Source: Candidatus Dadabacteria bacterium (GTDB taxonomy: Bacteria > Desulfobacterota_D > UBA1144 > Nemesobacterales > Nemesobacteraceae). Taken from it: a stretch of 64,000 bases of DNA. Positions 6,590-53,987 of this stretch are shown here, piece by piece (position 1 is the first letter of the stretch; each line of letters opens with the position of its first letter). The translations under genes were made by a program, and so were the position numbers. The notes beneath the pieces are model-generated. The model was not told where the DNA came from. It worked only from the letters and a program-made list of their open reading frames with translations, and did no database searches. The stretch is taken from assembly GCA_022822065.1 (NCBI GenBank), contig JAJECI010000007.1, positions 134,346 through 198,345 of the forward strand, given 5' to 3'.

Positions 6590-7240
6590 TCACTGCGAGA
6601 GCAGATTAACCCCTTCGTATTCGAGGATTGCCCTTTTCACGTCAAGTCCCCAGCGGTAGCCGTGAAGATTCCCCGTCTTTCCTATAACACGGTGGCAAGG
6701 CACCAAATAAGCAACCGGATTTCCCGCCACGGCGTTTGAGACGGCCCTTACGGCAGTGGGCATTCCTACCGACTCCGCAAGTTCTGAATAGGACAAGGTC
6801 TCTCCCTCCCGGACCTCCATCAGCTTTTCCCATACCTTGAGTTGAAATCGTGTTCCAAGGAGCAGTATCGCCGGCGGCTGTCTTCCAGGGGAAAACAGCA
6901 AGTTCCGCAATACTTCGGCCGTCTTTTGGTCATCTCTTCGATTCCTCGGGTTCTGCCATACCTTCCTGAATTCTTCCAAGTGGGTTTCAGTGCCGGTGCG
7001 GAAAAAACTCATATGACATATGCCTTCTTCGCAGACCCCGATAAGGCATTTTCCAAACGGGGTGCCGTGAATTCCGTAGACAAGGCGCATCCCGGACCTG
7101 GCTTCTTTCTTTTTCCCGGAGGATATCTCTTTCGTGTTAACCACAATATCCCGCCATAAGTGATTCGGGGGGCTTTTCAAGACTCCGTTATCGCGGGTTT
7201 TCTCATTTATCGACTGCATAGCAAACCTACCTTTTTCCAA
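6590..7240 (-). CDS. ogt: methylated-DNA--protein-cysteine methyltransferase (start may be an internal Met)
   Basis: C-terminal PCHRV active-site motif and HTH of the MGMT family. Confidence 0.75.
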   Translation of the reverse strand: MEKGRFAMQSINEKTRDNGVLKSPPNHLWRDIVVNTKEISSGKKKEARSGMRLVYGIHGTPFGKCLIGVCEEGICHMSFFRTGTETHLEEFRKVWQNPRNRRDDQKTAEVLRNLLFSPGRQPPAILLLGTRFQLKVWEKLMEVREGETLSYSELAESVGMPTAVRAVSNAVAGNPVAYLVPCHRVIGKTGNLHGYRWGLDVKRAILEYEGVNLLSQ

Positions 7241-12382: not shown

Positions 12383-12928
12383 TCACTCCTGAAGCAGGTA
12401 TATATCCTCAAGCAATCTTCCCTTTTCCATGTAATCCATTCCGTAGCCCACAAGGAATCCCTCATTTACTCTAAAACCCACATAATTAGGTTCCGGACCC
12501 CCTGCGTCTTTTCCCCTTTTGTCTACAAGCGCGCATATCCGGAGCGAACCCGGGTTTTTCGACTCCACGTGGCGCAGGACAAATTCTGCCGTCTTTGAGG
12601 TATCGATTATATCTTCAATTATTATAACGTCCCGGCCCTCCACGTCGCATTCAATGTCCGCCAGAAGCTCTAGGTGCCCCGGTCGTGTCGCCTTTCTGTA
12701 GCTTGAGGCCCTGAGAAACTGCTTTTCGACCGTAACGGTCACCTGCGCCAGAAGATCCTCAAAAAAGGGGCGCGCTCCCTTGAGAACGCAGACCGCAACG
12801 GGATTTTTTCCCTCGTAGTCCCCCGAAATTTGCTTGGCGAGCCTCGAAACGGCGGTTTTTATATCGTCTTTTGAGAGAAACTTTTTAAGTGCAACGCCTT
12901 CCAGGATTTCGGTTTCTTCAGTCAGGAT
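12383..12928 (-). CDS. hpt: hypoxanthine phosphoribosyltransferase; non-ATG start (ATC at 12928 or CTG at 12925) 6-9 nt after AGGAGGAG, overlapping the folK stop
   Basis: ORF-track Met at 12742 is internal. Frame stays open upstream and encodes the conserved HPRT N-terminus (LKKFLSKDDIKTAVSRLAKQISGDYEGKNPVAVCVLKGARPFFEDL). PRPP motif VIIIEDIIDTSKT. Confidence 0.75.
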   Translation of the reverse strand: MLTEETEILEGVALKKFLSKDDIKTAVSRLAKQISGDYEGKNPVAVCVLKGARPFFEDLLAQVTVTVEKQFLRASSYRKATRPGHLELLADIECDVEGRDVIIIEDIIDTSKTAEFVLRHVESKNPGSLRICALVDKRGKDAGGPEPNYVGFRVNEGFLVGYGMDYMEKGRLLEDIYLLQE

Positions 12929-13328
12929 CCCGCTCCTCCTTCAACGTTTTTTCAAGTTCAGGACAAAGTTCGATCACGGAGCGGCGAAGAAATTCCCGCT
13001 CGTAAACATCAGAATCGGCAATCTGCCCGTTCCACACGAGTATATCCAGGTCAATTTTTCTCGGGCCGTAGCGATCCTCCCCGGCACCTCTTCCAAGGGC
13101 AACCTCCACTCCCTTGAGCAAAGTTTTCAGCTGCTTACGGCCAAGACGGGTTTCTATCAGCAAGGAACCGTTTAGAAAATCCTTCTGCTCCCGGGATCCT
13201 ATGGGCTTGGTTCTCACGAATTTCGATTCCCCGAGAACACTGAGTTTCTCCCCGAGCATTCGTTTGGCGACGCTTACGTTCCTTTCGGCATCTATGTTTG
13301 AACCGACTCCGATAATGACCGTATTCAT
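12918..13328 (-). CDS. folK: 2-amino-4-hydroxy-6-hydroxymethyldihydropteridine pyrophosphokinase (HPPK)
   Basis: MNTVIIGVGSNI...DLDIL HPPK pattern; AAGGAGAAG RBS before ATG 13328. Confidence 0.85.
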   Translation of the reverse strand: MNTVIIGVGSNIDAERNVSVAKRMLGEKLSVLGESKFVRTKPIGSREQKDFLNGSLLIETRLGRKQLKTLLKGVEVALGRGAGEDRYGPRKIDLDILVWNGQIADSDVYEREFLRRSVIELCPELEKTLKEERDPD

Positions 13329-13535
13329 GCCCTGACAACTTCTCCTTGCGCCGACAAACCGGTCCCCAGACCACACAAGACCAAACTTCTCTCAGCCACC
13401 TGAGCCGACATCCGCGCCTAATCGGAACCGTATTTTACATTTAGACAACTGAATGTTAAACATGGTTTAAAAAACCGCGGGAAAGTCTTCCGCTCGACGC
13501 CTTCGAGAGAACCAGCAAGACGGTATCCGTCCCGC

Positions 13536-13883
13536 CTACCTTTCTCTCGCTTCGGTCACTGAAACGGAATCGGCAAAGCGAAGCGCCCCGGGTTTCTCCA
13601 CTTTCACCGACGCCCACCTCACCGCCGGATCCTCAAAAATTATATCGCATATGCCCCCGGCGACCCTCTCAAGCAGGTTAAAATCGTTTGTCTCCACAAA
13701 GCTTATGATCTTTTTGTTTATGGCCTTGTAGTCCAAAGTATCGTCTATGCTGTCGCTCTCGGCCGCCTTGCGTCCGTCAAAATCGATGGTGACGTTTATG
13801 ACCAGGTCTTGGGGGTTCTCCTTCTCCCAGTCATAAACCCCTATTATCGTGCGAAGTCTCAGGTTTTCGATTTTTATTATCAT
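13536..13883 (-). CDS. folB: dihydroneopterin aldolase
   Basis: 115 aa, conserved FolB pattern (IIGVYDWEK...VKVEKP). Confidence 0.85.
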   Translation of the reverse strand: MIIKIENLRLRTIIGVYDWEKENPQDLVINVTIDFDGRKAAESDSIDDTLDYKAINKKIISFVETNDFNLLERVAGGICDIIFEDPAVRWASVKVEKPGALRFADSVSVTEARER

Positions 13884-13887
13884 CTTA

Positions 13888-14601
13888 TCAGGTAAGGCTC
13901 ATGCCTCCGTCAACGAAAAGACACTCTCCGGTGACGTAATTGTTCTCCAGAAGATAGTTAAACGCGTTAATTATATCCTCAACAGAGCCCGGACGCTTCA
14001 TCGGAGCTCCCTGCGCCATCTTGTGAAGATAGTCATCCCCGAACCCCGGGGGAGCGAGAACGGCTCCGGGGCAAACGGCGTTCACCCGAAAATCGGGAGC
14101 GAGTTCCCTCGCAAGCATTTTCGTCAAGTGGTAAAGGCATTTCTTGCTCAGGTTGTAGCAGAAATGCTCAACGGGATTTCTTCTGACTCTCGTGTCAAGG
14201 AAATTAACGATAAGCCCCCCGCTTGTCTCGGCGGAAAAAGACTGGGAGAGAAAAAAAGGGGCCTTGAAGTTTATAGACATATCGGTTTCAAGAAATTCGG
14301 GAGTCACGTCACGGAATCCGACGTTCTCGAAAACCGAGGCGTTGTTAACGAGAACGCAGAGCCCCCCGAAGCTTTTCGTGACTTCCGGGATGAGCTCCCT
14401 TGTGTCATCAGGCGACGAAAGGTCGCACCTGAAAAGCTCGCACTCAACGCCGGTACTGAGAATAAGTTCCCTTGTAGCCAGGGCCTCTTTTTCGGAGGAA
14501 TTGTAGTGAAGAGCGATATAGTAGCCCTTTCGGGCAAGATTCAGAGATATCTCCTTTCCTATTCTCACCGCCCCGCCTGTAACCAAAGCCGCTTTTTTCA
14601 T
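13888..14601 (-). CDS. pteridine reductase / FolM-like SDR (likely start at MKKAALVTGG, nt 14601)
   Basis: TGGAVRIG (TGxxxRxG variant typical of the PTR1/FolM branch) and YNLSK catalytic motif; immediately upstream of folB-folK. Confidence 0.7.
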   Translation of the reverse strand: MKKAALVTGGAVRIGKEISLNLARKGYYIALHYNSSEKEALATRELILSTGVECELFRCDLSSPDDTRELIPEVTKSFGGLCVLVNNASVFENVGFRDVTPEFLETDMSINFKAPFFLSQSFSAETSGGLIVNFLDTRVRRNPVEHFCYNLSKKCLYHLTKMLARELAPDFRVNAVCPGAVLAPPGFGDDYLHKMAQGAPMKRPGSVEDIINAFNYLLENNYVTGECLFVDGGMSLT

Positions 14602-14789
14602 TTCGCATGGGAAACGGCGGTTTTCATGTCGGACATACCGCAAAAACCGCCTCTGGATATATGTTGATATATTATTCCCATTGTTTATTATAAGTAAATT
14701 TAAAAACGGCCCGCGAAAGCGAAATCCCGGCCGTCGTTTCATATGAATCCGACGCGCGCTGCCGCGGATTTCTCCCCGAGGATAAAGAA

Positions 14790-16784
14790 TTGGAGAACCT
14801 TGTAATCAACTGCATAAGAACTCTCGCGATGGACGCCGTGGAAAAAGCGAAGTCCGGCCATCCGGGAACCCCGATGGCTCTCGCTCCCACGGCTTTCGTA
14901 CTTTTCGACAAGTTCTTAAGGCATAACCCCGAGAACCCGAGTTGGTACAACCGCGACCGCTTTGTCCTTTCCGCCGGTCATGCTTCCATGCTTCTCTACG
15001 CCGCCCTCTACGTAAACGGATACGACATCTCGATTGACGATATAAAAAAATTCCGAAGCCTCCACAGCCGCTGTCCCGGTCACCCTGAACTGGGAATCAC
15101 GGCCGGAGTCGAGACCACGACCGGGCCTCTGGGGCAGGGAGTATCGAATTCGGTCGGAATGGCCATAGCGAGCAAATGGCTTTCGGAGCACTTTAACCGT
15201 CCCGGCTACGACATAATAAATCATCATGTGTATTCAATCTGCAGCGACGGGGACATGATGGAAGGAATTTCCTCAGAAGCCGCATCCATAGCGGGACATC
15301 TGGGGCTCGGAAACCTGATCTGGATATACGACAGCAACAGCATAACAATCGAGGGCAGCACCTCGCTTGCGTATTCCGAGGACACGGAAATGCGGTTCGG
15401 TTCCTACAACTGGCACGTGGAGAAAGTCTCGGACGCAAACAATCTTGGGGAAATTGAAAAAGCCCTCGCGCGCGCGCGGTCCGAAACCGAGAAGCCTTCC
15501 ATTGTCATACTAGAAAGTCAGATAGCCTACGGAAGCCCCAACAAGCAGAACACGTGCGAGGCCCACGGAGCGCCGCTTGGAGAGGAGGAAGTCAGTCTGA
15601 CGAAGGAATTTTACGGATGGGACGCCCCGGGGAACTTTCACATCCCCGAGGAGATCCTTTCCTACAGGGAAGAAGCGACCGCCAGAGGGAACGATGCCGA
15701 AGCGGCCTGGGAGGAGAATTTCAGGAAGTATTCAAACGAATATCCAGAACTTGCTCGCGACTTTGAGATGCTTGATAAAAGGAAGCTGCCTGAGGGATGG
15801 GACAGCGATATTCCGTCTTTTTCCTATCCCGCAGATCCGGTTGCGACCCGTTCCGCAAACTCAAGCATAATTAACGCCATAGGAAAAAAAGTGCCGTGGT
15901 TCATGGGCGGCGCCGCGGATGTTGGCTCTTCGACTAAGACCTATCTTAAGTGTGCGACGAGTTTCTCCGCCGAGGACCGTGAGGGAAGAAACTTTCATTT
16001 TGGAGTCAGGGAACATTCAATGGCCGCGATAGCAAGCGGCATGTGTCTCAGCGGACTCAGAGCATACGCCTCGACCTATTTCGTGTTTGCCGATTACATG
16101 AAACCCTCGATAAGACTTGCGGCGCTGATGAAACTTCCCGTAATTTACATTTTCACTCATGACAGCATAGGAGTCGGCGAGGACGGACCCACTCATCAAC
16201 CCATAGAGCATCTGGCAGCCCTCAGAGTAACACCCAACATCGACGTCATCCGTCCCTGCGACGCAAACGAGCTTGCGATTCTTTGGAAACACGTGATGGG
16301 ACTTTCTGACCGTCCCGCCGCGTTTGTTCTCACAAGACAGAACGTTCCGGTAATAGACAGGGACCGCTACGCCGCGGCCGAGGGAGCGCTCGCGGGCGGT
16401 TATGTACTTGCGGACTCAGACGGCACGCCTGACATCATACTGATATCCACGGGTTCTGAGGTTCACATCTGTCTTGAAGTTTATGAAAAGCTGCGCGGTA
16501 TGGAGAAAAATCCGAGAGTTGTGAGCCTTCCGTGCTGGAGTCTTTTCGAAACTCAGTCCCAGAAGTACAAAGACAGCGTCCTGCCGCCTTCTGTCGGCAC
16601 AAGACTAAGTGTAGAGGCCGGAGCGACGTTCGGATGGGAAAAATTCACGGGACCGGGGCCCGCTGCCAAGGCCTACGGAATAGATTGCTTCGGAGAATCC
16701 GCGCCATACCGCGACGTGATGAACAACTTCGGTTTCAACGCGGACACCATCCTAAAGGAATGCCTCAAGCTGCTTGGTAACTAG
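14790..16784 (+). CDS. tkt: transketolase
   Basis: 664 aa, SGHPG TPP-binding N-terminus, full TKT architecture. Confidence 0.9.
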   Translation: MENLVINCIRTLAMDAVEKAKSGHPGTPMALAPTAFVLFDKFLRHNPENPSWYNRDRFVLSAGHASMLLYAALYVNGYDISIDDIKKFRSLHSRCPGHPELGITAGVETTTGPLGQGVSNSVGMAIASKWLSEHFNRPGYDIINHHVYSICSDGDMMEGISSEAASIAGHLGLGNLIWIYDSNSITIEGSTSLAYSEDTEMRFGSYNWHVEKVSDANNLGEIEKALARARSETEKPSIVILESQIAYGSPNKQNTCEAHGAPLGEEEVSLTKEFYGWDAPGNFHIPEEILSYREEATARGNDAEAAWEENFRKYSNEYPELARDFEMLDKRKLPEGWDSDIPSFSYPADPVATRSANSSIINAIGKKVPWFMGGAADVGSSTKTYLKCATSFSAEDREGRNFHFGVREHSMAAIASGMCLSGLRAYASTYFVFADYMKPSIRLAALMKLPVIYIFTHDSIGVGEDGPTHQPIEHLAALRVTPNIDVIRPCDANELAILWKHVMGLSDRPAAFVLTRQNVPVIDRDRYAAAEGALAGGYVLADSDGTPDIILISTGSEVHICLEVYEKLRGMEKNPRVVSLPCWSLFETQSQKYKDSVLPPSVGTRLSVEAGATFGWEKFTGPGPAAKAYGIDCFGESAPYRDVMNNFGFNADTILKECLKLLGN

Positions 16785-43661: not shown

Positions 43662-44864
43662 CTATTTCCCCTCGAGAAGTTTTTTCACGGAAAGCCGGAG
43701 GGAGTTTAGCCTTATGAACCCGGTAGCGTCGGACTGGTCGTAAACCGAATCCTCCTCGAAGGTCGCCAGGTTCTCGCTGTAGAGGGAATTCGGGGATTTT
43801 CTCCCGCAGACTATAACGTTTCCCTTGTAAAGCTTAAGCCTCACCGTGCCGCTTACATCCTTCTGGCTCTGGCGGACGGCGGCACTCAGCATTTCCATCT
43901 CGGGAGAAAACCAGAAGCCATAGTAGATAAGTTCCGATATCTTCGGAATCAGGGAATCCCTGAGGCGCATCACTTCCCTGTCCATGGTAATCGACTCAAG
44001 AGCCCTGTGGGCCACGTGAAGAACAGTGCCGCCGGGGGTCTCGTACACTCCCCTTGATTTCATCCCGACGAACCTGTTTTCGACAATGTCTACCCTCCCG
44101 ATGCCGTTCGCGCCGGCAAGATCATTTAGGCAACCAAGAAGTGCCGAGGGAGAAAGGTTCTTTCCGTCAACTGAAACGGGAATGCCGCTTTCAAACCCGA
44201 TTTCCACGTAAACCGGCTGATCGGGAGCAGCCTCGGGAGAAACCGTCATCTCGAACATGTCCTCAGGCGCTTCGGCCCACGGATCTTCCAAGATTCCCCC
44301 CTCATAACTGATATGAAGAAGGTTGCGGTCACAGCTGTAGGGTTTTTTCTCGGTCACCGTAACGTCTATCCCGTTTTCCCCGGCGTAATTTATGAGGTCG
44401 GTTCTTGATTTGAAATCCCACTCGCGCCACGGGGCTATGATCTTTATGTCGGGGTGTAACGCATAGAAGGTAAGCTCGAAGCGGACCTGATCGTTTCCCT
44501 TGCCTGTCGCTCCGTGGGAAACTGCGAAGGCTCCCTCTTGCTTGGCTATTTCAATCTGCCTTTTCGCAATAAGGGGACGCGCTATGGAAGTGCCCAGAAG
44601 ATAGCTGCCTTCATACACCGCGTTTGCGCTTATCGCGGGGAAAACGTAGTCCCTGACGAACTCCTCTCTTAGGTCCTCGATGAATACTGCGCACGCACCG
44701 GTATCCCAGGCTTTCTGCTCCGCCTCCTGTAAATCCTCTTTCTGTCCTATGTCAGCCACATAGGCTATAACATCAGAGTCGTACTCGTTTACAAGCCACT
44801 TCAGGATTACCGATGTGTCAAGTCCCCCGGAATAGGCGAGAACTATCTTATTTTTCTCAGACAT
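43662..44864 (-). CDS. argG: argininosuccinate synthase
   Basis: [11 protein letters not shown]-loop. Confidence 0.9.
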
Positions 44865-44906
44865 ATTACTGGTACTCCGGTATTTCTTCGCGTATGAAAA
44901 GCTAAA

Positions 44907-45404
44907 TCAAGGCATGTCCTGATTCTGCTCGGAAATCGGGCGAAGATCTAGAAGGTAGAATTTTACTCCCTTGTTCTGGTAGAACTTTTCAAGCGAAAGA
45001 CCGGCATATTCTATTTTCTGGAGTTCATCTCCGGTGTAGGTAAGGTTCTTTACCTCTCCCGAGAGGGTGCACGAAAACGGTACGTCCTTATCCGGTCTTT
45101 CCTGACAGATAAAACCCATGTCTATCTGCCCGCTCAAATCCATGCTCAAAGGAACAATGAATCCCACCACCATCTTCACGCTCTGCAGTTCGACCACCAT
45201 GATCTTTATCTTGCTCGAATCGTCCTCGTCTCCGACCTCCATCACGTAGCCGTAGTAGTTTATTTCCTTGTTCTGCTCGCTTAGGGAATTCATGTACCAG
45301 TAATCTTCCGAATCGAGCCAGGACATTATTTTCATTGTTTTTTCCTCCAAGGATTCACATGGATATTTTGGGAAATTATATACTATTATCCCATCTTTAG
45401 GCAA
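44907..45404 (-). CDS. hypothetical protein (165 aa), intermediate GC
   Basis: ORF only; no recognisable motif. Confidence 0.4.
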   Translation of the reverse strand: MPKDGIIVYNFPKYPCESLEEKTMKIMSWLDSEDYWYMNSLSEQNKEINYYGYVMEVGDEDDSSKIKIMVVELQSVKMVVGFIVPLSMDLSGQIDMGFICQERPDKDVPFSCTLSGEVKNLTYTGDELQKIEYAGLSLEKFYQNKGVKFYLLDLRPISEQNQDMP

Positions 45405-45638
45405 CGATGCGAGACTGATTTAAACTGTCTTTTCCGTCATGCTCTTGAGAATTCCGAGAAAATCTCTTTCTCGTTCTATAGTTTCTATGACGAAATAATT
45501 GCCATTTTTTATATGTCTTATACATTTATTAAGTCATTACAGGACAAAACGAACTATTATTCTCGGACAAAATCTGTGCCGGAAAATACAAAAAACACAT
45601 CTACGAGCGATGAGATCAGTTTTGCTTAGAGGTACGCC

Positions 45639-46832
45639 ATGCGAAAATTCGCAATCCGTCTTCTCGCCTTGTTTCGACAGACATCTCTTTTCATCTGGAA
45701 GCTGCGCGGCAAAACGGAAGCCGACTTAGCCGCTCAACGTGTAGTTAGTGGAAAGTCCTGGGATGAGTTCTGCGACACTTTAAAAGCTGCGGGTGCAGCT
45801 TTAAATTTCCCAAAGGCACCTCAAGACGCATTCAATCAGGCAGAAGGATATCGGTACTTAAGCCGCATCGCCCGGGCCGGACTGATGGCATTTATCGAGC
45901 ATGCCGATCCGAAAGCACCTGTACTTCATCGCGTCGTCAACGAAACAACCAAGCTAGGTGCGGACAATCCTGATAACTTCTACCAGACAGCAGCCCTGAG
46001 CGGCGAGTACGAATACAAAATCACGGGGTGGCGCAACAACATTGCATACTTAAGCTTCGGCACTCAATCCGGCAACTATGGGCAAGGACGAGGGCTGCCT
46101 CCCACAGGACATATAGAGTCCGACCAGATAGAAACCGACGAAAATGGGTACTTTGAGCTGATACTTAGCTGTAAACCTCAGAGTAAGAACTGGCTTCCCA
46201 TGAAACCGGAGACCGGCACATTAGTGGTACGTCAGACTTTCCTTGACCGCAAAACAGAAACTCCGGCAGACTTGCGAATAGAACGGATCAATTGTTCCGA
46301 AGATGAGCGCAGCCCTTCTCCATTGACTCCGAAACAGCTCGACGAAGGATTAAAAACTGTTGGAACGCTCGTGGCAGGAGCACCATTGCTGTTCGCCAAG
46401 TGGGCCCGTGGTTTTCAAAAGCACACCAATGAACTGCCAATGTTTGATCCGGAAGTATCGCTGGCCGCCGGGGGTGATCCCAATATCGTTTACTACCACA
46501 GTCACTGGAAAGTAGCGGAAGGGGAAGCACTTTTGATAGAAGTAATGCCGCCGGAATGCGAACACTGGAACTTCCAGTTAAACAACTATTGGATGGAATC
46601 GCTGGACTACCGTTATCACACGATACACACTAACAAGCATCTTGCCCACTATGAAGATGACGGTTCTGTGCGCCTGGTAGTGGCTCACGAAAACCCCGGT
46701 CATCCCAATTGGCTCGAAACAGCTGGCCATTGTTCCGGCACGATGTGCTTTAGATGGGTGCGGGCGAAGGAACATCCTCAACCGCGGACCAAATTGATCA
46801 AGTCGACTGACCTTAAGCAGTTGCTGAGTTGA
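45639..46832 (+). CDS. hypothetical protein (397 aa; His-rich C-terminal region HSHW...HENPGHPNW)
   Basis: AGAGGT RBS; ATGA start/stop overlap with the sulfotransferase gene. Confidence 0.55.
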   Translation: MRKFAIRLLALFRQTSLFIWKLRGKTEADLAAQRVVSGKSWDEFCDTLKAAGAALNFPKAPQDAFNQAEGYRYLSRIARAGLMAFIEHADPKAPVLHRVVNETTKLGADNPDNFYQTAALSGEYEYKITGWRNNIAYLSFGTQSGNYGQGRGLPPTGHIESDQIETDENGYFELILSCKPQSKNWLPMKPETGTLVVRQTFLDRKTETPADLRIERINCSEDERSPSPLTPKQLDEGLKTVGTLVAGAPLLFAKWARGFQKHTNELPMFDPEVSLAAGGDPNIVYYHSHWKVAEGEALLIEVMPPECEHWNFQLNNYWMESLDYRYHTIHTNKHLAHYEDDGSVRLVVAHENPGHPNWLETAGHCSGTMCFRWVRAKEHPQPRTKLIKSTDLKQLLS

Positions 46833-48097
46833 ACAACGCTATGGCTAAAAAGAATCTGGCGACTTCTACAGACTATGAAAATCCCTACCGCCCTCTTCCC
46901 GTTAAGATTTTCAATTCCATCGGGAAGTTAAGTGAAAACCTCGGATTGTCGAGTTCTTTGAATATTGAGAAGCTCACCGCCAGCGCGATTAGAAAAACGA
47001 GGCTTGAGGATTTTGGTGACGACGGTCACTTTGAGGCATTGGAAGTTCTCATAAATTCGATTAATAACGAAGCTGAGCTAACCCCAACCGGCAGCCTGAT
47101 ACAAAAAATTCGACTTACAAGCGCATTAGTTCATCGCCTGCGAATTGAAGAGCTACTGAAACAACACCCTGAAATAGATGACATCAATTTAGGGAAGATT
47201 ATCCTGATCACGGGATTGCAGCGTACTGGAACGACAATATTGCACAGGCTGCTGAATTCTCATCCGAATATTCGAGGTGTATCAGGGGTGGAAGCGCTCA
47301 ACCCGCTACCACCAGGCAAAAACGCCGAAGGAGTGATCACTCGAAATACGCATGCGGCCCTCGCACAACGACTGATTGCCTATTTGTCACCGCAGTTCAT
47401 GGCAGTTCACCCTATTAACCATAATGAGCCGGAAGAAGACGTAATGCTTCTTGATCTGAACTTTATGAGCCAGGCTCCGGAGGCCACGATGCATGTGCCG
47501 AGTTACTCCCGGTGGCTTGAGGAGCAGGACCATACGCAGACCTACGAATATTTCCATAAGGTGCTGAAGATTCTGTGCTGGCACCGCCCCAGCGACAACT
47601 GGGTACTCAAAACGCCGCATCATATGGAATATCTGGATGTATTTCTTAAGGTTTTCCCCACTGCGACAGTCGTGCAGACCCACCGCGACCCCCGAAAAAC
47701 CATGCCTTCTTTCTGCAGTATGGTTGCTCACAACCGCGGCATATTCAGCGATCGGGTGGATCCAGAGGAAATCGCCAGACACTGGTCGAGAAAGACTCGC
47801 AGGATGATCGAGTTAACCATCCAATCCCGAGCTAAGGCAGATGCCGACCGATTTGTCGACGTTTCGTACTACGACTTGATGAAGGACCCGATTTCCCAGC
47901 TTCGCCGGATTTATCTAAAGGCGGGGGTCGACTTTGATACCGAAGCGGAGCAGCAAGCCGAGACTTTTATGAAAAAAAATCCGCAAAATCGCTTTGGTAG
48001 ACACGTCTACCATTTGAGTGATTTCGGATTGAGCGAGAAAATTATTGAAGATCATTTCTCCTTTTATCGGGAGAAATATGAAATTCCTTTCGAATAG
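46829..48097 (+). CDS. sulfotransferase family protein (PAPS-dependent, P-loop LQRTGTT)
   Basis: 5'-PSB loop ITGLQRTGTTILHRLL plus downstream 3'-PB-like region; 422 aa. Confidence 0.7.
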   Translation: MNNAMAKKNLATSTDYENPYRPLPVKIFNSIGKLSENLGLSSSLNIEKLTASAIRKTRLEDFGDDGHFEALEVLINSINNEAELTPTGSLIQKIRLTSALVHRLRIEELLKQHPEIDDINLGKIILITGLQRTGTTILHRLLNSHPNIRGVSGVEALNPLPPGKNAEGVITRNTHAALAQRLIAYLSPQFMAVHPINHNEPEEDVMLLDLNFMSQAPEATMHVPSYSRWLEEQDHTQTYEYFHKVLKILCWHRPSDNWVLKTPHHMEYLDVFLKVFPTATVVQTHRDPRKTMPSFCSMVAHNRGIFSDRVDPEEIARHWSRKTRRMIELTIQSRAKADADRFVDVSYYDLMKDPISQLRRIYLKAGVDFDTEAEQQAETFMKKNPQNRFGRHVYHLSDFGLSEKIIEDHFSFYREKYEIPFE

Positions 48098-48153
48098 CCT
48101 ATGCGAGTTCAAGCAACTGCAAAAAACCGGGAAACAATACGGAGAAGCTCACC

Positions 48154-49155
48154 ATGAAGCGAAAAACAAACCAAATGGGTGATGGTTCTTTCATAGACGC
48201 TATAACCATCGCAATTCGAGATCTGGCGCAACCCAAGGTATCTGAAGTAAATCCTGTTCCAAAGGATGTACGGATCGACGGCAAAACTTGTCTGATAACC
48301 GGGGCGAACAGCGGACTGGGCAAAGCCGCCGCCATTGAACTTGCAAGGCGTGGCGCAACCATGATTTTAGCTTGTCGGCCCGGTCACACGGAAACATGCG
48401 ACGAAATAAAAACGTTGTCCGGTTCCCAGAATGTAGAAATGATGGAAGTAGACCTCTCAGATCTTCGGTCGGTACACCGTCTATGCGATGGTCTGAGCAA
48501 CCGCAACATCAAAATTGACATTGCGGTTTTAAACGCAGGCCTGATGCCCAAAAGGGCAACTAAAACACCGCAAGGATACGAAGCAATGTTCGCGGTTCAT
48601 TTCTTGTCGAATCGCATCATGGTTGACCGGTGGCTGAAAGACGGCGTGGTCTGTCCATCCAGTCAAGCCGGTAAGACGCCGCGAATCATCTTCGTTTCAT
48701 CTGAGGCTCACCGGTCCTCTCATACCATCGATTTCGACCATCTCGGGAAATTTACCGACTATGGACTCATGGATGGCTTCAAGTATTACGGTATCAGCAA
48801 ACTTATCTTGTGCATGTTCGCAACCGAACTCTCACGCCGTTTGAATACAGGCAGCGAAACTGAAGTCGCGGTTCACTCAATGTGTCCCGGAGGCGTCGCT
48901 ACCAACCTTTCACGGGGAACACCGTTGATCCTGAAACCTATAGTTAATCCGTTGCTAAGACATTTCTTTCAATCTCCGGAAGAAGCTATTGGGCCGGTAA
49001 CTTACCTATGCTGCGCGGAAGAAGCCGGTACCGAAACAGGAATCTACTTGCATCTAATGCAGCGAAAGTCCGTGTCTCCTACGGCATTGGATGAGGAAAA
49101 CGGAACTAAGTTGTGGGAAGCAAGCGAGTCCTTAGTCGCTAATTCCCAAGAGTGA
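48154..49155 (+). CDS. SDR-family oxidoreductase (retinol-dehydrogenase-like classical SDR)
   Basis: TGANSGLGKAAA, NAGL, YGISK catalytic triad. Confidence 0.75.
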   Translation: MKRKTNQMGDGSFIDAITIAIRDLAQPKVSEVNPVPKDVRIDGKTCLITGANSGLGKAAAIELARRGATMILACRPGHTETCDEIKTLSGSQNVEMMEVDLSDLRSVHRLCDGLSNRNIKIDIAVLNAGLMPKRATKTPQGYEAMFAVHFLSNRIMVDRWLKDGVVCPSSQAGKTPRIIFVSSEAHRSSHTIDFDHLGKFTDYGLMDGFKYYGISKLILCMFATELSRRLNTGSETEVAVHSMCPGGVATNLSRGTPLILKPIVNPLLRHFFQSPEEAIGPVTYLCCAEEAGTETGIYLHLMQRKSVSPTALDEENGTKLWEASESLVANSQE

Positions 49156-49202
49156 GTCCTATAACTAGGGAGATCACATCTTATACATAACGTTGTTTCC
49201 AC

Positions 49203-50219
49203 ATGCCTAACACGTTCTCAAAATCCGTCTCAAAATTCGTAACTCATACCCTACAGTTGCTTACGGGCAAGCCGACGGCGGAAGAAGTTGATATGTCGGG
49301 TCGGAACGTCATTGTGACGGGTGCTTGCCCTAATTCAATCGGTTATGAAACGGCTAAGATCCTTGCAAGCTGGGGTGCTACAGTTGTTGTCACCAGTATT
49401 GACAGTATTGAATTGATGGAAAGCTCTCTGAGGAGAGACTTGCGAATCATCGGCGCTGACGAAAAAAAGATTACGGCCCATATATTAGATCTGTGCGATG
49501 TTGATAGTGTTAATAATTTCACAACTTGGTACCGAAAAAACTACAACGACCGACTGCACGTACTTGTCAATAACGCAGGGATTCACAAGAACATTCTTAA
49601 GCCAAGAGAAAAGCCGCCCATGACAAAAGACGGTTTCGAAATTCATTGGCGAACCAATTTCCTCGGAACTTTTCACCTGACGAGTCTGTTGCTTCCGATT
49701 CTTAAGCAAAGTGGGTTAGAAAGCGGAGATGCGCGAGTCGTCAACCTGACTTCCCACTTGCACGACAGAGTGAAAAACAAGAGTATGTTTAACGATGATG
49801 GAGACTACCACTCCTGGGACGCTTACGCGCTGTCAAAATTAGCGCTGATCCACCTTACTTTCGAGATCCAGAGACGGTTTGCCAAAAAGTACAACCTCCA
49901 ATCGGTAGCACTACACCCCGGGTCTGCTAAGACTAATCTTACGCCGATTGAAGAATTCGAAGGAAAGATCGGGTATCTTCTAAACCAAATCTGTTCCACG
50001 TTCACATCTCTTTTCTTGCTACGCCCAATAGTGGGCGCGCAAACTTCCGTGATGTGCGCTAGCAAATACCCGCTTCAAGGTGGAAGTTATTACGAACGCT
50101 GCGAAGTAGCGAAATCATCCGACGATACAAAAGACCAAGATGTGTCGAAACTTCTATGGGACAACTCAGACGCATGGGTTAAAACCCTAGTTAAGACAGG
50201 CAGAGACAGGCATGAATAG
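49203..50219 (+). CDS. SDR-family oxidoreductase (second paralog-like copy)
   Basis: VTGACPNSIGYETA, NNAGI, YALSK. Confidence 0.75.
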   Translation: MPNTFSKSVSKFVTHTLQLLTGKPTAEEVDMSGRNVIVTGACPNSIGYETAKILASWGATVVVTSIDSIELMESSLRRDLRIIGADEKKITAHILDLCDVDSVNNFTTWYRKNYNDRLHVLVNNAGIHKNILKPREKPPMTKDGFEIHWRTNFLGTFHLTSLLLPILKQSGLESGDARVVNLTSHLHDRVKNKSMFNDDGDYHSWDAYALSKLALIHLTFEIQRRFAKKYNLQSVALHPGSAKTNLTPIEEFEGKIGYLLNQICSTFTSLFLLRPIVGAQTSVMCASKYPLQGGSYYERCEVAKSSDDTKDQDVSKLLWDNSDAWVKTLVKTGRDRHE

Positions 50220-50670
50220 TTCTACTGTACGTACCGACCGCATTCAGATCAACGCACCCATTGACTTCGTTTGGGAAATCCTGACTGACGTTGAAAAATA
50301 TGGTGAGTGGAATCCATTCACATCCCGGGCCAGAACCGATTTTAAAATTGGGTCGCCAGCTCGTCTGTTGGTAAGAATGGGGCCCACAAAATTCAGAATA
50401 ACCGAAACCGTATGTGCATTTGAAAAACCACGCCTTATTTCCTGGAGCAGGAAATTCGGAACTTCTTGGCTCTTGTTTGTGGTGCGAGAGCAACATCTAG
50501 AACCTATAAATGATGAAAGTTGCAGTTACCATAATGTCGACCTGATGAGCGGCGTGCTTTCACCAATAATTTCACTGCTCTTCGGCGGTTATATACGCCG
50601 CGGTTTTACCGATGTAGGCGTGGGATTAAAACTTCGCGCGGAAACTCTGTATCGGGAGATGAAAAACTAA
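50212..50670 (+). CDS. SRPBCC (Bet v1/START-like, polyketide_cyc2) ligand-binding protein
   Basis: 152 aa; pattern INAPIDFVWEILTDVEKYGEWNP; 8-nt overlap with the upstream SDR. Confidence 0.65.
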   Translation: MNSSTVRTDRIQINAPIDFVWEILTDVEKYGEWNPFTSRARTDFKIGSPARLLVRMGPTKFRITETVCAFEKPRLISWSRKFGTSWLLFVVREQHLEPINDESCSYHNVDLMSGVLSPIISLLFGGYIRRGFTDVGVGLKLRAETLYREMKN

Positions 50671-50744
50671 AGATCTGCCGAAATGCAGTGTTCCTCCCCG
50701 GTGTTAAACTGCACCGCTTCGCTGAAAGAAGGAAAAAGAATCCG

Positions 50745-51422
50745 CTAAGGGGAAATCCCGACAAAGCTAATCATCTTGTCCGTACCGGAACCGTCTCTTC
50801 TGTATGAAGGAAGGCCCTGACAACAAGTGCACAGATTCATTATCTCGATTTCCGGAACTCCCGCATCGCAAAGCTCGATTCTGTTAAGTTCCACGAGATC
50901 AAGAAGAAACTTCCCGTCGCCTTTTTCAAGAAGCCAGTCCGCTTCGCCGCTGAACTTTGAGACGAATTGTGACGCCACATCGTCCCGAACCTCGTAGCAG
51001 CATCCCCATATGGCCGGACCTATTACGGCCACGGCGTCCTGCGGCTTCAAAGAGTATTCTTCACAGACGGCCCCAAGGCAGTTTCTAACCGCACGCAGTG
51101 AGGTTCCGCGCCATCCCGCGTGGACAGCGCAAACGCATCCGGAATCGGGAAAGCAGAGAAGAACAGAAACGCAGTCGGCCGTGATGACCCCGACACCTAC
51201 ACCTTTTTGCTGAGTAACGATCGAATCGGCTTCGGCAGGTTCCTCCGCCATCGCGCTGTCGGCGAAAAAAACAGTGTTGCCGTGAACCTGGTTCACAGTA
51301 AGGATATTCTCAAGCCCGTGCATAGAGGCGATTTTCAGGATATCCGGCCCTCCGGGATCATGAACGAAACCGTGGATAACGCCGTTGCACTCCTCAAGCA
51401 GGGCCGAACGAAAAACCCTCAT
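50745..51422 (-). CDS. pgeF: YfiH/PgeF laccase-domain protein (purine nucleoside phosphorylase/peptidoglycan editing factor)
   Basis: DUF152 pattern (HGxxV, CxxH, AGWRG). Confidence 0.8.
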   Translation of the reverse strand: MRVFRSALLEECNGVIHGFVHDPGGPDILKIASMHGLENILTVNQVHGNTVFFADSAMAEEPAEADSIVTQQKGVGVGVITADCVSVLLCFPDSGCVCAVHAGWRGTSLRAVRNCLGAVCEEYSLKPQDAVAVIGPAIWGCCYEVRDDVASQFVSKFSGEADWLLEKGDGKFLLDLVELNRIELCDAGVPEIEIMNLCTCCQGLPSYRRDGSGTDKMISFVGISP

Positions 51423-52375
51423 CAGTTCTGCCTCCCTAAAAAATCGATCACTGAAACCATGTCCTCGGGGATTTCCGCTGAAAGCTCAATCCGCTTTCCG
51501 GTCGCCGGATGGGTAAATCCGAGGCTTCTTGCGTGAAGCGCGTGTCTTTTTATTAACGCTCCCAATACCCCGGAATTTTTTGGGCGACTTTTTTTGCCTC
51601 CATAAACTTTATCGGCAAGCACCGGGAACCCGTTTTCAGAAAAATGAACCCTTATCTGGTGAGTTCTCCCGGTCTTCGGCCAGACACTCACAAGAGTCGC
51701 TCCACGCAGTCTCTCGATTACCTCCCAACGGGTTTCGGCATCTCTTCCAGTCCTGGAAAAAGAGGTCATCTTTATCCTGTTCGAGGGACTCCTTCCTATG
51801 GGGGACCTGAAAGTCCCTGAGTTTTTCTTCATTTCACCGGAGACAATAGCCACGTATTCCTTTTCCGTCTCCCTGGTCTTGAACTGCTCGGAAAGACTTT
51901 TGTGTGCCCGGTCGTTTTTAGCAACGACCATGATCCCGGAGGTCTCCTTGTCGAGGCGGTGAACGATCCCCGGGCGCATCTCGCCTCCTATCCCCGAAAG
52001 ATCCTCGCACATATAAACAAGAGCGTTCACAAGCGTGCCGCTCGTCACTCCCGCTCCGAGGTGAACCACCATGCCGGCGGGTTTGTTGACGACGATTATG
52101 TCACTATCCTCGTAAACAACCTCGACATCGATCTCCTCTCCCTTGATGCCGCAGGGTTCGGGAGGCGGAATGTTAACGCTCAGGCTTTCCCCGCCGTTTA
52201 TTATCCTAGAAGGCTTAAACATTTTGCGGTCAATAAGTATGTTCCCAAGCTCTATGTGTTTTTTTATGCTCGAGCGGCTAAGTTCCGTCAGGAAGCCCGA
52301 GAGGAACACGTCGGCTCTTTGGCCGGCAAATTCCCTAGGGATTTCCGTTACCGTTTTTTCTTTCGCAGGTTCCAT
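51422..52375 (-). CDS. rluD: 23S rRNA pseudouridine synthase, RluA family (RluD-like, S4 + catalytic domain)
   Basis: VVNKPAGMVVH and HRLDKETSG motifs; classic rluD-yfiH pairing. Confidence 0.85.
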   Translation of the reverse strand: MEPAKEKTVTEIPREFAGQRADVFLSGFLTELSRSSIKKHIELGNILIDRKMFKPSRIINGGESLSVNIPPPEPCGIKGEEIDVEVVYEDSDIIVVNKPAGMVVHLGAGVTSGTLVNALVYMCEDLSGIGGEMRPGIVHRLDKETSGIMVVAKNDRAHKSLSEQFKTRETEKEYVAIVSGEMKKNSGTFRSPIGRSPSNRIKMTSFSRTGRDAETRWEVIERLRGATLVSVWPKTGRTHQIRVHFSENGFPVLADKVYGGKKSRPKNSGVLGALIKRHALHARSLGFTHPATGKRIELSAEIPEDMVSVIDFLGRQN

Positions 52376-53222: not shown

Positions 53223-53987
53223 ATGGTGAAACTTACAGTTTTGGGTTCGGGCACCTGCGTGCCCCACAAAAAAAGAGGCTCTTCCGGATATCTTCTCGGC
53301 ACCGATACCGGTTCCGCTCTCTTTGACTGCGGGAACGGTGTGGTATGGAAGCTTGAGAAAATAGGAGTCGACTATCTTGGGATCGACAATGTTTTCATAA
53401 CGCATTTTCACCCAGACCACACTTCCGACCTGATCCCACTTCTTTTCGCTACCAGGCATCCCTACAGGAAGAAAAGAGAGAAGACGCTCGGGATATGGGG
53501 GCCGGAAGGATTTTCGGAATTTGTCGAAGAACTGCGTGTGCCCTACAGGGAGTGGGTAAGACCCGAACTCGTGGAAATCCATGAGATAGGAAAAAAGAAA
53601 CAGAAAATCGGCGACCTTGAAATAAAAGCCTTCAAAACCGTTCACACTGAAAACAGTATTGGCTATATTGTACGCTCCGGCGGAAAGAAAATCGTTTATA
53701 CGGGAGACACGGGTTATTTCCCCGGACTTCAAAAGGTGGCCTCGGATGCAGACATATTCGTCACGGAATGTGCGCTTCCGGATTCAGAGAAAATGGCCGT
53801 TCACATGACTCCTTCAGACATAGCGGAGATTCTTCGGGAAAGCAGTCCCAAAAAAATCGTCCTTTCGCACCTTTATCCATCAATGGACCAAAGAAATCTT
53901 CCGGAAGAAATAAAAACGCTTTCGGGAAACAGCGAAACGGAAATAATAGTGGCCGAAGACCTGATGGAAGTTGTTGCGGGACCATAG
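53223..53987 (+). CDS. MBL-fold metallo-hydrolase (RNase Z/BN-like)
   Basis: HFHPDH motif. Confidence 0.75.
   Translation: MVKLTVLGSGTCVPHKKRGSSGYLLGTDTGSALFDCGNGVVWKLEKIGVDYLGIDNVFITHFHPDHTSDLIPLLFATRHPYRKKREKTLGIWGPEGFSEFVEELRVPYREWVRPELVEIHEIGKKKQKIGDLEIKAFKTVHTENSIGYIVRSGGKKIVYTGDTGYFPGLQKVASDADIFVTECALPDSEKMAVHMTPSDIAEILRESSPKKIVLSHLYPSMDQRNLPEEIKTLSGNSETEIIVAEDLMEVVAGP

Follow-up and report, generated by a model that had tools for sequence, protein, structure and literature searches.

The window, the whole 64-kb stretch of DNA that we analysed, comes from a sponge-type Dadabacterium and contains five open reading frames on the + strand, at 45639-46832, 46829 (TTG start) or 46841 (ATG start)-48097, 48154-49155, 49203-50219 and 50212-50670. 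They are flanked by argG and queA on one side and by yfiH (Cu-oxidase_4) and rluD on the other. The public record carries the same gene calls, with the second gene starting at ATG 46841. The cassette and its surroundings comprise the following features:

45405..45638, + strand: AT-rich leader, probable promoter region (35.9% GC; kept in 8 syntenic dadabacterial genomes)
45639..46832, + strand: DUF1214-like protein, 397 aa, of the 6ANS/Rv3531c family, best-conserved cassette gene
46829..48097, + strand: Stf1/Stf9-type sulfotransferase, predicted to be PAPS-dependent (Sulfotransfer_3 5.4e-45; 2ZQ5/2Z6V homology)
48154..49155, + strand: SDR1, classical SDR of 333 aa, PRK06197-like, third core member (adh_short, motifs)
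49203..50219, + strand: SDR2, 338 aa, second SDR of SDR1's subfamily, accessory (adh_short, motifs)
50212..50670, + strand: SRPBCC (Bet v1-like) protein of 152 aa, putative hydrophobic-ligand binder, accessory (Polyketide_cyc2; translationally coupled to SDR2)
45601..50704, no strand assigned: relocation unit, the block common to dadabacterial genomes with the cassette at another site (blastn)

The first junction, between the DUF1214-like and sulfotransferase genes, is an overlap with the TTG start or an 8-nt gap with the ATG start. Junctions 2 and 3 are gaps of 56 and 47 nt, and the SDR2 and SRPBCC genes share an 8-nt ATGAATAG overlap at 50212. An earlier note on this DNA had described a co-directional five-gene cassette between argG and rluD-yfiH, and the gene calls, the public record and the short junctions bear it out as an operon. 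Both overlaps it placed at 46829 and 50212 are indeed short and the latter is confirmed, but the former reads TTGA (a TTG start over a TGA stop) rather than ATGA. Its domain predictions all hold (DUF1214, Sulfotransfer_3, adh_short twice and Polyketide_cyc2), as does its statement that the cassette contains no scaffold-synthesis gene; none recurs beside the 80 related loci described below. The same is true of transporter or uptake genes, and no hydrophobic segment was seen in the five products.

The 234-nt leader, rightly called AT-rich before, is conserved along its length in the syntenic genomes, and the conserved stretch includes a weak -35/-10 match at 45499-45526 (TTGCCA, a 16-nt spacer, TACATT). 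Only its last 38 nt (45601-45638, including an AGAGG ribosome-binding site) move to a second chromosomal site. The leader has no Rfam match and no KstR operator.

Protein families and related operons

The sulfotransferase (422 aa if translated from TTG 46829, 418 aa if from ATG 46841) is homologous over its full length to two solved structures, M. tuberculosis STF1 (PDB 2ZQ5, E 2.9e-56) and PDB 2Z6V (E 8e-49); the latter, M. avium Stf9, was deposited as 'putative uncharacterized protein'. The 5'-phosphosulfate loop (RTGTT, residue 128) and the 3'-phosphate motif (RDPRKTMPS, residue 282; both in 418-aa numbering) align with the 5'-PSB and 3'-PB motifs of Stf1. The PAPS-binding motifs are thus kept, at an identity of only ~32-35%. 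As the substrate of STF1 itself is still not known (PMC13449962), the homology tells of fold and cofactor but of no reaction. The olefin-synthase ST domain 4GOX is weakly matched as well (E 3.8e-4). No PAPS-synthesis gene is located within the 64-kb window. Homologous cassettes elsewhere adjoin APS-kinase-type genes (cysNC or cysC alone): in 2 free-living loci, with cysNC divergent from the cassette in Burkholderia and cysD and cysNC in Cupriavidus, and in 9 sponge-type loci (5 Acidimicrobiales, 3 Poriferisodalis and 1 Chloroflexota), where either an APS kinase or cysNC is immediately next to the cassette.

The first protein, in which no motif had been assignable, is homologous along its entire length to 6ANS, a solved Burkholderia structure, and matches Pfam DUF1214 (33.7 bits; cut-off 25). 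It shares 47-52% identity, over its full length, with the first proteins of Burkholderia cenocepacia, Cupriavidus, Pseudomonas and Hydrocarboniphaga, and 29% with M. tuberculosis Rv3531c (E 9e-34). The homolog alignment contains many invariant charged residues. A metal site in a histidine-rich C-terminus, as suggested earlier, is not supported: H287 is the sole invariant histidine in 37 homologs, and is an alanine in Rv3531c. Proteins of the sponge clade have an extra N-terminal amphipathic helix, which is absent from the free-living and M. tuberculosis versions. We found no characterised relative of the DUF1214-like fold; the structural-genomics DUF1254/DUF1214 proteins VPA0106 (3U07) and VPA0735 (2P3Y) are 9-13% identical to the window protein, differ from it in their DUF1254 + DUF1214 make-up and have no known sulfotransferase link. 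The gene is the best-conserved component of the cassette and abuts or overlaps the sulfotransferase gene.

SDR1 (adh_short 3e-20; PRK06197 2.5e-39, below that model's cut-off) contains the motifs TGANSGLG, LNAG, SSEAH and YGISK, and SDR2 (adh_short 5.6e-20; PRK06197 3e-44) the motifs TGACPNSIG, NNAG, TSHLH and YALSK; the two are 23% identical to each other. SDR1 is not an ortholog of the SDR (260-263 aa) encoded in the M. tuberculosis and Burkholderia operons: identity is 23-26%, and the Rv3530c match covers the N-terminal 91 aa only. Residues 9-80 of the SRPBCC protein match Polyketide_cyc2 (5e-9; 37 bits, cut-off 27.4), and the protein is 34% identical (E 1.7e-24) to the product of an SRPBCC gene beside the Burkholderia cassette.

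The cassette represents one version of a widespread, biochemically uncharacterised operon type, which combines a DUF1214-like protein of the 6ANS/Rv3531c family, an Stf1/Stf9-type sulfotransferase and an SDR. The combination, which the earlier note could match to no characterised pathway, does have a counterpart in M. tuberculosis Rv3531c-Rv3530c-Rv3529c (stf1), itself uncharacterised in function, and the same trio is present in M. kansasii. Like the window, the M. tuberculosis operon encodes a DUF1214-like protein, an SDR and an Stf1-type sulfotransferase (35% identity, E 3e-64) in co-directional genes that touch or overlap. In contrast to the window, its order is DUF-SDR-ST rather than DUF-ST-SDR, its SDR belongs to the other, 260-aa subfamily, SDR2, SRPBCC and the N-terminal amphipathic extension are missing, and it lies behind a KstR operator in the cholesterol-catabolism region. 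The DUF1214-like/sulfotransferase pair is also found, with a 4-nt gene overlap, in Burkholderia, Cupriavidus, Pseudomonas and Hydrocarboniphaga. These 6ANS-type operons (B. cenocepacia, Cupriavidus necator and others) keep the window's order of DUF1214-like, sulfotransferase and SDR genes, and in Burkholderia an SRPBCC gene is nearby. Unlike the window, they come from free-living hosts, encode a 263-aa Rv3530c-type SDR and no N-terminal extension, are followed by an additional conserved ~320-aa protein lacking a Pfam match, and have cysD/cysNC adjacent. Sphingomonads contain the DUF1214-like gene with an SDR and no adjacent sulfotransferase, amid TonB receptors, NTF2-like proteins and oxidoreductases.

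Distribution and transfer of the cassette

We compared 80 related loci, 19 dadabacterial and 61 from other bacteria, one of which (L062) ends at the first gene. In all 79 loci that extend further, the sulfotransferase gene comes next after the DUF1214-like gene, the core order being DUF1214-like, sulfotransferase, SDR1. SDR1 is present in 79/80 loci and in nearly all of them stands immediately behind the sulfotransferase. The SRPBCC gene occurs in 19/19 dadabacterial loci and in ~36 of the 61 others; a good SDR2 match (43-67% identity) is found in only about one-third of the non-dadabacterial loci, and SDR2 is deleted in the dadabacterial locus L015. SDR2 and the SRPBCC protein are optional members.

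The related loci span nine phyla with unrelated flanks, and outside Dadabacteria their first proteins remain 72-83% identical to that of the window; to our knowledge the housekeeping proteins of these phyla are not equally similar. The phyla are intermixed in the DUF and SDR1 trees, which are mutually congruent, Dadabacteria fall in two separate sub-clades (L047), and the sponge-type clade is separate from the compared free-living proteobacterial homologs. Within Dadabacteria, the argG...yfiH slot is occupied by the cassette in 13 of 19 species genomes. At a second site, whose dnaB-side flanks are unrelated to argG...yfiH, blastn homology to six loci (L004, L005, L009, L012, L014, L015) begins at 45601 in 6/6 and stops at 50704 in all but L014 (50672). 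No terminal repeats, adjacent tRNA or integrase were found at the block ends 45601/50704.

By composition, the cassette (48.2% GC versus 51.4% in the rest of the window) falls below every other 5-kb window sampled at 100-nt steps across the 64 kb (mean 51.3%, sd 0.8, minimum 48.6%). Its genes have a GC3 of 0.44-0.54 (mean 0.505) versus a background of 0.587 (sd 0.044, n=57; Mann-Whitney p=6e-4), a shift that is real though modest. The low GC noticed earlier is thus present, but the figures given for it (43-46% versus 52-55%) were overstated, and a mean GC3 of 0.505 is no preference for A/T at third codon positions. The dip of ~3 points is common to most dadabacterial copies and gives no donor, because the nearest non-dadabacterial copies exceed the GC of the dadabacterial host; in other phyla cassette GC tracks host GC. 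The GC argument for transfer is weak, and the comparative evidence is stronger: near-identical cassettes in nine phyla, unrelated flanks, intermixed trees and two sharply bounded dadabacterial sites indicate a history of horizontal transfer. The shared slot shows that this strain did not acquire the cassette recently. The earlier proposal of horizontal acquisition is therefore upheld as to transfer, not as to its GC basis; the syntenic conservation across the host lineage that it would have counted against transfer is found in the 13 genomes, and the cross-phylum comparison still supports transfer. That these are ordinary vertically inherited lineage genes with a noisy GC dip is very improbable, since the common slot, the small GC difference and the agreement with host GC, which all suit it, are set against the cross-phylum identities amid wholly different flanks, the intermixed phyla, the two dadabacterial sub-clades, the exact block ends at the second site and the separate sponge-type clade. 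The sponge-type variant, marked by its different SDR, its N-terminal extension and the optional genes for SDR2 and SRPBCC, has been exchanged among bacteria of at least nine phyla, most of them recognisable as sponge symbionts (sponge origin being taken from record titles and a few papers), followed by vertical inheritance within lineages such as Dadabacteria.

Proposed function

We favor, with a probability of roughly 55%, the reading that the five genes form an operon for the PAPS-dependent O-sulfation of a small molecule that is hydrophobic and carries a hydroxyl group, an operon that belongs to a widespread type and has been exchanged among sponge symbionts. Transcription would start in the AT-rich leader and all five products would be cytoplasmic. 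One or both SDRs may set the oxidation state of a keto/hydroxyl group, the sulfotransferase, judging by its PAPS motifs and Stf1/Stf9 homology, would pass sulfate from PAPS to the hydroxyl, and the SRPBCC protein may hold or hand over the hydrophobic ligand. The DUF1214-like protein could be an obligate partner that presents the same substrate or acts on it, and in the sponge clade may sit at the membrane via its extra helix. The tailoring module of redox, sulfation and ligand-binding steps proposed earlier stands in its domains and operon, its biochemistry being inferred. Both the sphingomonad DUF1214-like gene with no adjacent sulfotransferase and the missing PAPS-synthesis gene in the 64-kb window count against O-sulfation.

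A sterol or other hydroxylated lipid available inside sponges is the preferred substrate class, a sterol in particular being a tentative choice. This leaning comes from M. tuberculosis, where the operator in the Rv3531c/Rv3532 intergenic region bound KstR (PMC1995591) and Rv3531c transposon mutants grow poorly on cholesterol (cholesterol/glycerol ratio 0.279, p 1e-4; PMC3182942 supplement), from the recurring SRPBCC partner, including that in Burkholderia, from the sphingomonad neighborhoods and from ErSULT. This Eubacterium ramulus enzyme has an STF1-like fold and sulfonates hydroxy fatty acids (PMC13449962). ErSULT and the Bacteroides steroid sulfotransferase BtSULT, experimentally shown to be PAPS-dependent on hydrophobic alcohols (PMC13449962), are the nearest functional precedent for the probable role of the cassette, a likeness in function; they come from gut bacteria and have no reported DUF1214-like partner, unlike the window of a sponge symbiont. 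Rv3531c is in the cholesterol-requirement list and Rv3530c and Rv3529c are not (PMC3182942 supplement), so that the link to sterols may lie with the DUF1214-like protein rather than with sulfation. As neither window SDR is orthologous to the M. tuberculosis/Burkholderia SDR, the chemistry may differ.

Less probably, the operon makes a sulfated envelope or signalling lipid of the bacterium itself, comparable to the sulfated menaquinone S881 or sulfolipid-1 of M. tuberculosis, whose Stf enzymes serve its own sulfated metabolites (PMC3141025). Its spread among sponge symbionts would then reflect host tolerance or recognition, not the processing of host compounds. The lack of a transporter or uptake gene, the amphipathic helix, which suggests action at the own membrane, and the dedicated PAPS genes beside several versions, as biosynthesis would predict, are consistent with such a product. 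However, no scaffold-building gene is linked in any locus examined, the M. tuberculosis counterpart has a KstR operator in front of it and sits in the cholesterol-catabolism region, and hosts from nine phyla whose envelopes differ greatly better fit a shared external substrate.

It is improbable that the target is a carbohydrate or glycolipid, such as a trehalose-like sugar or exopolysaccharide, with the beta-sandwich DUF1214-like protein as a sugar-binding partner and sulfated glycans mimicking the sulfated sponge matrix. A little less probable still is transient sulfation, in which sulfate is a leaving group, the DUF1214-like protein catalyses elimination or rearrangement and the end product is unsulfated. 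CurM and olefin-synthase ST domains install sulfate in this way, and the 4GOX match, the tight coupling of the two genes (overlapping in free-living versions) and the enzyme-like invariant charged residues would agree with it. Yet the surroundings include neither a PKS nor a thioesterase, the sulfotransferase has its best homologs in the stand-alone Stf1/Stf9 enzymes, the sphingomonad DUF1214-like gene does without an adjacent sulfotransferase, and the M. tuberculosis cholesterol phenotype belongs to the DUF1214-like gene rather than to the sulfotransferase.

Layout and composition of the cassette

The earlier note had placed five co-directional genes at 45639-50670, and five forward-strand reading frames are indeed present there, in agreement with the public gene calls (ENA ERZ23491298, scaffold_2).

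45405-45638, leader
45639-46832 (+), 397-aa DUF1214-like protein
46829 or 46841-48097 (+), sulfotransferase
48154-49155 (+), first short-chain dehydrogenase/reductase (SDR1)
49203-50219 (+), second short-chain dehydrogenase/reductase (SDR2)
50212-50670 (+), SRPBCC protein
45601-50704, block common to both dadabacterial chromosomal sites

The proposed coupling of the junctions stands as far as short gaps and overlaps are concerned: 56 nt separate the sulfotransferase from SDR1, 47 nt separate SDR1 from SDR2, and SDR2 overlaps the SRPBCC gene by 8 nt (ATGAATAG). The ATGA overlap at 46829 does not stand; the sulfotransferase starts either at TTG 46829, over the TGA stop of the DUF1214-like gene (TTGA), or at ATG 46841 after an 8-nt gap. 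The 234-nt leader, described as AT-rich, has a GC content of 35.9%. Rfam returned zero matches at E ≤ 1 over 44800-51500, the leader included, which gives no sign of a riboswitch or another structured RNA there, and a promoter and terminator scan gave counts not above those of shuffled sequences, a weak -35/-10 being the sole leader match. Upstream of 45601, the leader is kept among syntenic dadabacterial genomes only.

Hand-counted windows had suggested a low GC content. Computed windows confirm the dip but not its size, with 48.2% GC in the cassette versus 51.4% in the rest of the window. Windows of 5 kb sampled across the 64 kb average 51.3% GC (sd 0.8, minimum 48.6%), and none is as low as the cassette. 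GC3 ranges from 0.44 to 0.54 in the cassette, with a mean of 0.505, and the 57 ORFs outside it average 0.587 ± 0.044 (Mann-Whitney p = 6e-4); the cassette mean contradicts the supposed preference for A or T at third codon positions. The compositional shift of the cassette is real and small.

Predicted activities of the encoded proteins

Pfam agrees with every domain guess made from the sequence by eye (DUF1214, Sulfotransfer_3, two adh_short and Polyketide_cyc2). The sulfotransferase scores 154.7 bits against Sulfotransfer_3 (cut-off 27, E 5.4e-45) over profile positions 2-215 of 216. It is homologous over its full length to Mycobacterium tuberculosis STF1 (PDB 2ZQ5, E 2.9e-56, query residues 41-407 on chain residues 12-382) and likewise to PDB 2Z6V (E 8e-49). 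The 5'-phosphosulfate-binding loop, RTGTT at residue 128, aligns with GLVRTGTT of STF1, and the 3'-phosphate-binding motif, RDPRKTMPS at residue 282, aligns with HRPVETIMAS. With its PAPS motifs intact, the protein is predicted to be a PAPS-dependent enzyme of the Stf1/Stf9 type. The substrate of STF1 is still unknown, and activity on hydroxy-fatty acids has been shown experimentally for an enzyme with an STF1-like fold (PMC13449962). A PKS-linked sulfotransferase of the CurM or olefin synthase type was rejected: the match to PDB 4GOX is weak (E 3.8e-4), and the cassette has no PKS gene.

No CysN- or CysC-like gene lies within the 64-kb window. PAPS genes (cysNC, cysD or APS kinase) repeatedly adjoin homologous cassettes, and nine sponge-type loci have an APS kinase or cysNC gene abutting the cassette (Acidimicrobiales, Ca. 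Poriferisodalis and one Chloroflexota MAG).

APS kinase or cysNC beside the cassette in fetched genome loci (coordinates of each locus)
L032, L041, L049, L050 and L051: about 7150-7920
L048, L060 and L076: about 12460-14960
L063: 3714-4205

The 397-aa first protein matches Pfam DUF1214 with 33.7 bits (cut-off 25) in residues 303-372 only. Its full-length counterpart, in sequence and in fold, is PDB 6ANS, an uncharacterised protein from Burkholderia cenocepacia (E 6.5e-113). Relatives are numerous, with 3,442 clusters at 50% identity reaching E ≤ 1e-3 and 454 reaching E ≤ 1e-30. A metal site suggested for the histidine-rich C terminus finds no support in residue conservation. Residues that do not vary in the family include E69, R72, R76, R79, D109-D112, R198, D203, R204 and W310-R325. 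At the other end of the protein, a basic amphipathic helix of about 25 residues (45639-45713, residues 1-25; consensus MRKxAIGLLALFRRISLFxWKLRGKT) is conserved in 16 of 16 sponge-clade homologs examined and missing from 21 other aligned homologs, which are of the 6ANS type and mostly free-living; this helix may bind membranes. In the open-access literature we found no functional study of DUF1214, DUF1254, VPA0735 or 6ANS, no paper in which DUF1214 and a sulfotransferase appear together and no description of the cassette in sponge symbionts.

Both SDRs score above the adh_short cut-off. SDR1 contains TGANSGLG, LNAG, SSEAH and YGISK, and SDR2 contains TGACPNSIG (with atypical spacing), NNAG, TSHLH and YALSK. 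With cofactor and catalytic motifs kept, both are classical short-chain dehydrogenase/reductases. Their nearest subfamily is PRK06197, under whose cut-off both fall, and the nearest solved relatives are PDB 3RD5 (uncharacterised, molecule name MYPAA.01249.C) and protochlorophyllide reductase. The putative SRPBCC protein matches Polyketide_cyc2 with 37 bits (cut-off 27.4), residues 9-80 aligning with profile positions 6-79 of 142 only.

Sharing across phyla and placement in Dadabacteria

We scanned bacteria and archaea, each species represented by a single genome, and found 334 genomes with a relative of the 397-aa protein, of which the best 80 were fetched. Among these best 80 of 334, 19 are Dadabacteria/Thermodesulfobacteriota MAGs with 89-96% identity in this protein, and they mark the host of the window as dadabacterial. 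The other 61, at 72-83% identity, belong by record title and taxonomy to Pseudomonadota (Gamma and Alpha), Chloroflexota, Acidobacteriota, Actinomycetota, Nitrospirota, Binatia, Bacteroidota, Gemmatimonadota and a second dadabacterial lineage. Judged from their names, many are recognised sponge symbionts (Ca. Poriferisodalis, Ca. Porisulfidus, Ca. Palauibacter irciniicola and a 'lac_sponge' scaffold) or members of sponge-metagenome MAG series. Gene presence was scored per locus by tblastn with the window proteins, simple ORF calls having produced antisense shadow ORFs in high-GC loci. By this measure the order DUF1214-like gene, sulfotransferase, SDR1 is found in 79 of 79 loci that reach past the first gene (L062 stops there). 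Outside Dadabacteria, identities to the window are 50-70% for the sulfotransferase and 53-71% for SDR1; SDR2 and the SRPBCC gene are restricted to some lineages. Apart from the cassette genes themselves, no family is a recurrent neighbour across phyla in the related loci.

The possibility that these are ordinary lineage genes holds in part within Dadabacteria, where 13 of 19 genomes carry the cassette in the same slot as the window, between argG with its small ORF and yfiH/rluD. It fails for the remaining six, which carry it elsewhere, and across nine phyla, where the same block stands between unrelated flanks. In neighbour-joining trees, the sponge-type copies form one clade apart from free-living proteobacterial homologs. 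Within this clade phyla are intermixed and Dadabacteria appear at two places, and the tree of the first protein shows broadly the same groups as that of SDR1. These findings together indicate that the cassette moved between phyla as a unit. In high-GC hosts the GC content of the cassette tracks that of the host (54-70%), and the transfers are not very recent. High protein identity combined with host-tracking GC therefore points to strong purifying selection. Its sharing across phyla among sponge-associated bacteria is the notable property of the cassette, and a variant of the gene pair passed among nine phyla of apparently sponge-dwelling bacteria under such selection is a candidate trait for sponge life.

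Two individual loci deserve mention. L047, from Ca. Dadabacteria p16x57bins.17, is the dadabacterial copy that stands apart; it belongs to another cassette sub-clade (75% identical, no SDR2), and its position among Gemmatimonadota copies implies that this lineage acquired the cassette independently. L008 (CAYSDX010000029.1) is labelled 'uncultured Spirochaetia bacterium'. Its gene order is that of Dadabacteria, and its argG and queA share 94% and 87% identity with those of the window, so the label is probably a taxonomic error or the contig was mis-binned.

Six dadabacterial genomes carry the cassette away from this slot, with dnaB as its neighbour in L004. The first window position that these copies match is 45601 in every one of them, and the last is 50704 in five. 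The block so bounded reaches 38 nt upstream of the first start codon and 34 nt beyond the last stop codon, and such sharp ends define the unit that moves. As in a genomic island or mobile element, the same block does occur in different contexts, but hallmarks in the form of an integrase or transposase, direct repeats or a tRNA site were not found. No terminal repeats are found at the block ends, the nearest tRNA lies more than 7 kb from the cassette, and no integrase or recurrent mobility gene sits beside it across the loci. A search of viral contigs by peptide patterns found none with the cassette, and carriage of the sponge-type cassette on plasmids was likewise not found, the only plasmid matches being distant homologs at ≤45% identity.

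Local rearrangements are visible in several dadabacterial loci. A 1.3-kb insertion separates SDR1 from SDR2 in L005 (11530-12863), and in L015 (11530-12147) both SDR2 and the beginning of the SRPBCC gene are gone. The intergenic regions flanking the cassette, equivalent to about 45405-45490 and 50670-50745 of the window, are insertion hotspots in other Dadabacteria.

Insertions at the hotspots (coordinates of each locus)
L003: 4573-7785, encoding a pentapeptide-repeat and a lipoprotein-like protein, plus a piece of SDR2 (5' end)
L016: 6216-7851
L018: 6427-7854 and 13051-15276, with a Fic-domain gene (motif HPFDDGNGR)

Two other genes of the window were also noted.

44907-45404 (-), 165-aa ORF separating argG from the cassette (publicly called at 142 aa), no Pfam or NCBIfam match
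53223-53987 (+), metallo-beta-lactamase-fold gene

The product of the first is 77-94% conserved in 13 syntenic dadabacterial genomes, and the ORF is therefore a real lineage-specific gene. The precomputed Pfam matches of the second include Anti-Pycsar_Apyc1 and Lactamase_B, and it may be an ordinary metallo-beta-lactamase hydrolase.

Mycobacterial and free-living relatives and the likely substrate

We compared the cassette with related operons outside sponges. The STF1 sequence led to a locus of the M. tuberculosis complex in which Rv3531c, Rv3530c (an SDR) and Rv3529c (stf1) overlap and run in the same direction, beside kshA; M. kansasii has the same type of trio. Rv3531c (375 aa, no Pfam match) is 29% identical to the 397-aa protein (E 9e-34). 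The window thus shares with M. tuberculosis a DUF1214-like gene and an Stf1-type sulfotransferase in one operon, but lacks an ortholog of the 260-aa SDR Rv3530c: SDR1 and SDR2 are only generically similar to Rv3530c and to the Burkholderia SDR (23-26%), the Rv3530c match being limited to the N-terminal 91 aa, whereas the SDRs of the Burkholderia, Cupriavidus and Hydrocarboniphaga operons are 37-40% identical to Rv3530c. The intergenic region between Rv3531c and Rv3532 contains a KstR operator and bound KstR (PMC1995591). This operator has no counterpart in the window leader; TAGAACGTGTTCTA, with ≤3 mismatches allowed, is absent from 45405-45638, and its two matches elsewhere in the window are not above chance. 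Griffin et al., using a transposon screen, list Rv3531c among the genes needed for growth on cholesterol (ratio 0.279, p 1e-4; PMC3182942 supplement, summarised in PMC6429209), and Rv3530c and Rv3529c do not appear in that list (PMC3182942 supplement).

A search with 6ANS recovered the operon in cultivable Burkholderia, Cupriavidus necator, Pseudomonas and Hydrocarboniphaga. In these free-living versions the DUF1214-like gene overlaps the sulfotransferase by 4 nt. Next there is usually an ortholog of Rv3530c, an SDR of 263 aa, and in three of four a conserved protein of about 320 aa without a Pfam match comes next. The latter is located at 10150-11136 in L085, 10158-11123 in L086 and 9284-10246 in L087 (Burkholderia, Cupriavidus and Pseudomonas; 57-63% identical). 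Burkholderia and Cupriavidus carry cysNC divergently upstream, with cysD in addition in Cupriavidus, and the Burkholderia SRPBCC gene is 34% identical to that of the window. In contrast, the sponge-type variant is without the 320-aa protein, its SDR1 belongs to a longer SDR subfamily distinct from Rv3530c, and SDR2 and the SRPBCC gene are often appended. The cassette is not an oddity of one genome; it represents a variant of its own within an operon type that is widespread and uncharacterised.

The functional sketch of the earlier note remains reasonable. The operon would O-sulfate a hydrophobic alcohol, with the SDRs adjusting the oxidation state of the target carbon and the SRPBCC protein probably serving as ligand carrier; the DUF1214-like protein would be an obligate partner. 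Unusual sterols are abundant in sponges, from which sulfated lipids and sterols are also known. We lean towards a sterol or lipid substrate because of these sponge sterols, the mycobacterial evidence on KstR and cholesterol, neighbours of the SRPBCC and NTF2 types and the hydroxy-fatty-acid activity, with the caveat that the M. tuberculosis cholesterol phenotype attaches to Rv3531c alone. A bolder reading, which we consider unlikely as it stands, makes the cassette a 'symbiosis cassette' of the sponge holobiont that spread through at least nine bacterial phyla owing to its action on a compound common in sponge tissue, most attractively by converting host sterols to or from sterol sulfates, with the extremely conserved DUF1214-like protein a new sterol or lipid enzyme or carrier; it would also explain Rv3531c and stf1 of the cholesterol regulon. 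The pair of a DUF1214-like and an Stf-type protein is a widespread orphan set that includes these two M. tuberculosis genes. Knowing its product would bear on whether symbionts have a share in the sulfated lipids and sterols of sponges and would give a function to a large domain-of-unknown-function family, and the cultivable C. necator, Burkholderia and Pseudomonas operons together with the 6ANS crystal structure provide experimental handles.

The pairing of sulfotransferase and DUF1214-like gene is strict in every locus examined but the sphingomonad ones. Large plasmids or chromids, from sphingomonads and elsewhere, carry distant homologs that have an SDR partner and no directly paired sulfotransferase. 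On two sphingomonad megaplasmids, Novosphingobium sp. ES2-1 plasmid p1 (L089) and N. aromaticivorans pNL2 (L090), homologs about 42% identical to the 397-aa protein follow an SDR gene; no sulfotransferase is adjacent, and a CysQ or sulfotransferase gene lies about 6 kb away, amid TonB receptors, NTF2-like genes and oxidoreductases.
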